From a virus (Duplodnaviria; Heunggongvirae; Uroviricota; Caudoviricetes): a stretch of DNA of 12,302 nt. Under the pieces are notes generated by a model. That model was not told the origin of the DNA. It searched no databases and saw only the letters and a list, made by a program, of their open reading frames with translations. The DNA lies in IMG/VR virus record IMGVR_UViG_2529293038_000015, one strand, 5' to 3'. A program made the position numbers and the translations under genes. Position 1 is the stretch's first letter. Each line of letters opens with the position of its first letter. This document shows, one piece after another, positions 7,715-12,302 of this stretch.

Positions 7715-12302
<4,588 letters not shown>

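Follow-up and report, generated by a model that had tools for sequence, protein, structure and literature searches.

The stretch of DNA analysed in this study (hereafter the window; 12,302 bp) was identified by exact protein matches as the entire contig AIFB01000003.1 of a draft assembly (GCA_000249195.2) of Escherichia coli DEC2C, dated 2012. It is composed of tail genes of a lambdoid prophage and of one copy of the insertion sequence IS4, which lies within the tail-tip gene J. The element and its borders are located as follows:

10256-11680, minus strand: IS4 element of 1425 bp, antisense within the lambdoid tail-tip gene J (delimited against K-12 IS4)
10243-10255: left copy of the 13-bp target-site duplication, CAGCAAACTGGAG (repeat analysis)
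11681-11693: right copy of the 13-bp target-site duplication, CAGCAAACTGGAG (repeat analysis and related loci with an empty site)
11663-11680, minus strand: left terminal inverted repeat of IS4, TAATGCCGATCAGTTAAG on the IS strand, the same as the end of K-12 IS4
10256-10273, minus strand: right terminal inverted repeat of IS4, TAATGCCAGTCAGTTAAG on the plus strand

Both terminal repeats are 18 bp long, both ends of the element read TAATGCC..., and the 13-bp direct repeat around it is perfect. The reading frame of J (7718-10258) extends 3 bases into IS4 and is closed by the TAA of the IS end. In three related prophages (L010, L018 and L014, the latter of strain DEC2D) the same site is empty and contains one copy of CAGCAAACTGGAG. 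The insertion of IS4 into J is real, since a clean 13-bp duplication is accompanied by an empty site known in related strains. Its absence from DEC2D and from the other related loci examined makes it look recent, with little time for decay. This insertion alone already disables the tail tip.

IS4 matches were detected in 2770 E. coli complete-genome records, and the same J::IS4 insertion was not found in any complete E. coli genome or phage record. PI7 and Lambda_4B5 were considered as candidates for the same insertion and rejected: both carry IS4 nearby, but downstream of J.

The transposase gene (insG) of the inserted copy is divided between two ORFs. These, together with all the positions at which the element differs from the reference in the alignment, are:

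11081-11596, minus strand: N-terminal transposase ORF of 171 aa, residues 1-150 being those of InsG with P81Q and the last 21 out of frame
10269-11225, minus strand: C-terminal transposase ORF of 318 aa, i.e. InsG from PRQTHAGNP on, containing the YREK motif and the greater part of the DDE domain
11147-11150, minus strand: first indel, a G4 run (C4 on the IS strand; C5 in the reference) at IS position 531, where the frame switches
11124, minus strand: second indel, a single C on the plus strand as against CC in the reference (GG to G, IS position 558)
11102-11106, minus strand: third indel, T5 on the plus strand as against T4 in the reference (A4 to A5, IS position 577), which offsets the second
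11355, minus strand: substitution of C by A on the IS strand at IS position 326 (P81Q in InsG)

The two ORFs are as described in the original prediction, which had been made from the sequence without a reference: the N-terminal one ends with ...ENDAAFP and 21 out-of-frame residues, and its overlap with the C-terminal one (145 nt) involves different frames. The switch of frame had been placed at the G4 run, and the alignment puts the change from C5 to C4 exactly there. The N-terminal ORF contains the Pfam domain Nterm_IS4 (E = 6e-34) and has an alternative TTG start at 11614, which gives a product of 177 aa. The C-terminal ORF contains DDE_Tnp_1 (E = 1.3e-26), and residues 159-164 of InsG are represented in it by RSTRRS, not ALYPQV, as a result of the second and third indels. 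InsG is thus split after residue 150, with wild-type pieces in all three frames across residues 150-166. Since the DDE domain of intact InsG comprises residues 126-352, the catalytic domain is interrupted by the break: the 171-aa product retains Nterm_IS4 together with the beginning of the DDE domain, and the remaining DDE part and the YREK motif are in the other frame. If the deposited sequence is taken at face value, this IS4 copy would be inactive.

The element was compared by pairwise alignment with IS4 of K-12 MG1655 (NC_000913.3, 4502090-4503515; 1426 bp, with a single 442-aa insG, b4278) and by a four-way alignment with two further copies. Exactly four differences from K-12 were detected in 1426 aligned columns, i.e. 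one substitution and three one-base indels, with 1421 of the 1425 bases aligned identical to the reference. The second and third indels lie 22 and 41 bp from the G4 run, and all three fall within 46-47 bp; the computed chance of three random sites lying that close in a 1426-bp element is 0.003. Restoration of the fifth G alone yields a 442-aa ORF with six wrong residues (seven with P81Q), whereas reversal of all three indels yields exactly the K-12 InsG except for P81Q.

The length of 1426 bp, which had been given for IS4 when the loss of a single base was proposed, agrees with the K-12 annotation, and the G run has indeed lost one base from a reference run of five. However, there are three indels within 47 bp, not one; they sum to -1, and the lengths of 1425 and 1426 bp therefore resembled one loss. 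A naturally split transposase, which would have spoken against a frameshift in this copy, is not what the K-12 reference has: its insG is one unsplit ORF.

Elements of the IS4 subgroup are 1400-1650 bp long, have -AATR- ends (PMC2266710, Table 1) and generate target duplications of 10-13 bp. The duplication of 13 bp is within this range, and the window copy shares with K-12 IS4 (the type element of the IS4 family, IS4 subgroup) its near-identical sequence, its size and ends, the Nterm_IS4 and DDE_Tnp_1 domains and, in the C-terminal ORF, the Y-(2)-R-(3)-E-(6)-K signature. It differs from the unsplit 1426-bp K-12 element in the indels at 531, 558 and 577, in P81Q, and in the presence of 171-aa and 318-aa ORFs. 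The transposase gene of this group is unframeshifted, and the deposited InsG is split after residue 150; this departure reflects either an error or a pseudogene and is no argument against the identity of the element as IS4.

The indels of the element are not the only ones on the contig. The window without the IS was aligned with phage cdtI, the prophage of strain 55989 and up to nine close prophage loci of other assemblies (5-10 near-identical loci being compared), which revealed five further one-base run-length indels private to the window, at positions 3565, 6055, 6155, 6156 and 11959. The change from GG to G at 3565 splits the tape-measure gene H into two ORFs (2269-3588 and 3591-5324); GG was present in 9/9 related loci, including four independent read-run assemblies, and H is intact (1018 aa) in most of them. 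Three insertions occurring in the window only (+G at 6055, +T at 6155 and +G at 6156) are located within 102 bp of gene L (5663-6364). Their net effect is in frame (233 versus 232 aa), with approximately 33 codons garbled. The change from C4 to C3 at 11959, whose private status was judged among five related loci, causes a frameshift in the distal part of J, downstream of IS4, which leaves ORFs at 11739-12002 and 12050-12302. An AAA to AA difference from strain 55989 at 6362 was not counted as private; it is missing from the indel columns when five close loci are aligned.

Other assemblies of the related prophage have private run-length indels of their own: L018 at 2916 and 2949, L017 at 4401, L015 at 5496, and L022, which was assembled from a read run, at 4092. 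In other drafts of this prophage the tail genes are split at differing places.

A further length difference concerns the A8 run at window position 3850, within H. The run is one base shorter in L014 (DEC2D), L017, L018 and L021, giving H pieces of 559 and 456 aa, and the longer run is shared by the window and five other loci. Since the shorter run is common to four loci, it could reflect either genuine variation or a miscall that recurs.

Substitutions are distributed very differently from the indels. Positions 1-5752 of the window are 99.93-99.97% identical to four assemblies built independently from public read runs. Of 27 window-private substitutions, 26 lie in one 750-bp patch within J (8518-9268); this distribution points to a mosaic, recombinant segment from a different J allele rather than to scattered divergence. 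The remaining one, at 6153, is next to the insertions at 6155-6156 and is probably an alignment artefact. Outside the J patch there are effectively no private substitutions in the phage genes, and P81Q is found in IS4. The totals outside this patch are thus 8 private indels against 1 private substitution (P81Q). In E. coli, indels make up approximately 10% of mutations in mutation-accumulation studies. With indels taken as 10-30% of mutations, the probability of such a ratio arising by real divergence is between approximately 1e-7 and 4e-4.

The four read-run assemblies (L019-L022) all end at the equivalent of window position 5752, just after gene M, and the similarity of the window to its relatives falls beyond this point. 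Position 5752 is probably a repeat boundary common to several lambdoid prophages.

The proteins encoded by the window were also sought by exact look-up in a collection of approximately 15 billion proteins. Each of the frameshift products, i.e. (i) the 171-aa InsG fragment, (ii) the 439-aa and 577-aa pieces of H, (iii) the 233-aa L, (iv) the 846-aa J' and (v) the 87-aa piece of distal J, was found on one contig only, that of the window. Adjacent proteins without a break (U, V, G, T and M) were found on between 18 and at least 1000 contigs. The repaired proteins were absent from the same collection (InsG with P81Q of 442 and 448 aa, the version in which the C run alone was restored, and the Q81 form of the C4-only version), so that this search did not confirm P81Q either. 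Among IS4 copies of complete genomes, the -G/+A pair of the second and third indels was detected in 0 of 4887 places (2576 records), and P81Q in 0 of 4853 places (2567 records).

The C4 run has a different distribution from these changes. At least one exact C4 copy, annotated as frameshifted, was found in 18/2568 IS4-bearing complete-genome records. In the protein collection, the C4-only products of 171 and 177 aa occur on 131 and 9 contigs, respectively, as against one contig for the window's own product; intact InsG occurs on at least 1000. The sources of the C4 product include Shigella sonnei 53G, S. sonnei 3226-85, S. flexneri K-304 and E. coli MS8345. The last strain (NZ_CP025401.1) carries two C4 copies (L001, 2559255-2560600, and L023, 1676044-1677389), which occupy different sites and are each flanked by a separate target duplication. 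As in the window, these two copies and that of strain 2012EL-2448 (NZ_CP027586.1) have C4 in place of C5 at IS position 531 and are 1425 bp long. The 171-aa product of the MS8345 copies is that of the window through residue 158 except for P81Q, whereas 2012EL-2448 does not have that exact product. Unlike the window, the copy L001, which was aligned in full, has neither the other two indels nor P81Q.

The draft genomes of the DEC collection, announced by Hazen et al. in 2012, were presumably made by 454 pyrosequencing, that of DEC2C probably among them. Libraries of the 454 Titanium type (3-kb paired-end) and the Celera assembler were used for E. coli drafts from the same centre in the same period (PMC3491183). 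In a further report (PMC3568017), 454 inaccuracies are described as nucleotide gaps that create frameshifts. The features of the window resemble the homopolymer errors of 454, flow-based and long-read sequencing in several respects: one-base indels occur only in base runs (8/8 events), they cause frameshifts in otherwise conserved genes, they are restricted to one assembly and differ between sister drafts, and they exceed the substitutions. The window differs from the usual consensus errors of 454, the presumed platform of DEC2C, in that 2/8 events fall in two-base runs, which is uncommon unless the depth is very low.

The pattern observed directly, i.e. one-base indels in base runs, confined to this contig and in excess along its whole length, is probably due to run-length miscalls in a low-quality draft that hide an intact IS4; an origin in sequencing or assembly is what we infer from it. 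The frameshift in the transposase is most likely a sequencing error because it belongs to a set of eight one-base run-length changes that are exclusive to the DEC2C draft contig. According to this explanation, a genuine IS4 has inserted into J of a lambdoid prophage in E. coli DEC2C, and three runs within 47 bp of the element would have been miscalled (C5 to C4, GG to G and A4 to A5). The underlying element would then probably be a normal 1426-bp IS4 encoding one intact 442-aa DDE transposase. The recurrence of C4 in drafts (S. sonnei 53G, S. flexneri K-304) and the pair of copies in MS8345 form the pattern expected of a context-dependent undercall.

Several points stand against an error. A miscall of GG as G is unusual at the consensus level unless coverage is very low, and run-length slippage is the commonest natural indel, too. 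Moreover, the prophage was already disabled by IS4, so that selection would not act against genuine frameshifts in H, L and J. The presence of C4 in finished genomes, with two such copies in one strain, could also mean that a real defective allele is circulating; the MS8345 copies could represent either a systematic undercall on error-prone platforms or such an allele mobilised in trans.

It is also necessary to consider whether the C5 run lost one C by replication slippage, with or without the other two indels, which would make the copy a non-autonomous pseudogene. We regard such a real frameshift as rather unlikely. The deposited sequence does read so, and the break at residue 150 inside the DDE domain would split the catalytic triad: its first D (near residue 133) would belong to the 171-aa fragment, and its second D, like the E of the YREK motif, would be encoded in the other frame. 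Such a copy would be mobile only when transposase is supplied in trans, and the original prediction would then be right in a weak sense. The frameshifted C4 copies in complete genomes support this possibility, and those of MS8345, at two sites and with their own duplications, fit the mobilisation of a defective copy in trans. IS4-family transposases, e.g. those of IS10 and IS50, act preferentially in cis. Against a real frameshift stand the eight private run-length indels across the contig with essentially no private substitutions, their clustering, and the recent look of an insertion that is missing from DEC2D (L014) and from the further related loci examined. In addition, no other assembly encodes the exact products, and none of the 4887 copies has the other two indels. 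A bolder proposal takes the C5 run at position 531 for a hypermutable switch, in which C4 "off" copies recur, are mobilised in trans (for which the MS8345 pair would speak) and revert, so that the transposase is phase-variable and the DEC2C copy happens to be "off"; we consider this highly doubtful.

The idea that the split itself is functional, the C run serving to regulate the IS4 transposase by programmed ribosomal frameshifting, transcriptional slippage or a phase-variable switch, as in IS1 and IS3, is extremely improbable, even though the break sits in a base run and C4 recurs in unrelated assemblies. The arrangement is like that of the IS1 and IS3 family elements with programmed -1 frameshifting, in which a DNA-binding part is encoded upstream of a catalytic part and the two overlap in different frames. 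It differs in that the window has no slippery heptamer, the split is not conserved among IS4 copies, and the break lies inside the DDE domain and not between domains. The sequence GCC TTC CCC GCC (GCCTTCCCCGCC) contains neither an X XXY YYZ heptamer nor an A/T run of at least 7. C4 is absent from 2550/2568 IS4-bearing records (>99%), and K-12 has one continuous ORF; programmed frameshifting was therefore rejected, for want of a slippery motif and of a conserved split. The window copy would, moreover, need three changes of frame within 47 nt to produce InsG, and the IS4 family is defined partly by the lack of a frameshift in the transposase gene (PMC2266710).

It is also conceivable, though very unlikely, that slightly different IS4 copies and prophage tail modules of DEC2C were collapsed into a chimeric consensus, with the indels marking the joins. 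Such a chimera is favoured by the short length of the contig, which consists entirely of repeat-prone DNA, by the break of four independent assemblies at 5752 with the three insertions of gene L just beyond it, and by the mosaic patch in J. But collapsed copies should give substitutions as well, and not run-length changes alone; furthermore, neither the -G/+A pair nor P81Q occurs in any of approximately 4900 complete-genome IS4 copies, and there is therefore no known donor copy. This explanation is a variant of an artefact and makes no separate biological claim.

With run-length miscalls as the preferred explanation, the transposase frameshift is most probably not a real feature, and no conclusion can be drawn on the non-autonomy of the copy. 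The original prediction had held that the frameshift, if real, makes the copy non-autonomous and the insertion in J effectively fixed unless transposase is supplied in trans. The frameshift on which it relied is indeed present in the deposit, but the inference is not well supported, because this frameshift belongs to a contig-wide set of private one-base run-length indels. As a caution, the frameshifts on the DEC2C contig, i.e. those in the IS4 transposase, H, L and distal J, should not be taken as biology. If the frameshift in the transposase were real, it would be an ordinary one, in a pseudogenised copy of a well-known IS, and its only effect would be to stabilise one insertion.

At the right end of IS4 we also observed an 11-nt perfect inverted repeat, GCCAGTCAGTT / AACTGACTGGC, whose arms are 4 nt apart (window positions 10260-10285). 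It overlaps the terminal repeat and is normal IS4 sequence.
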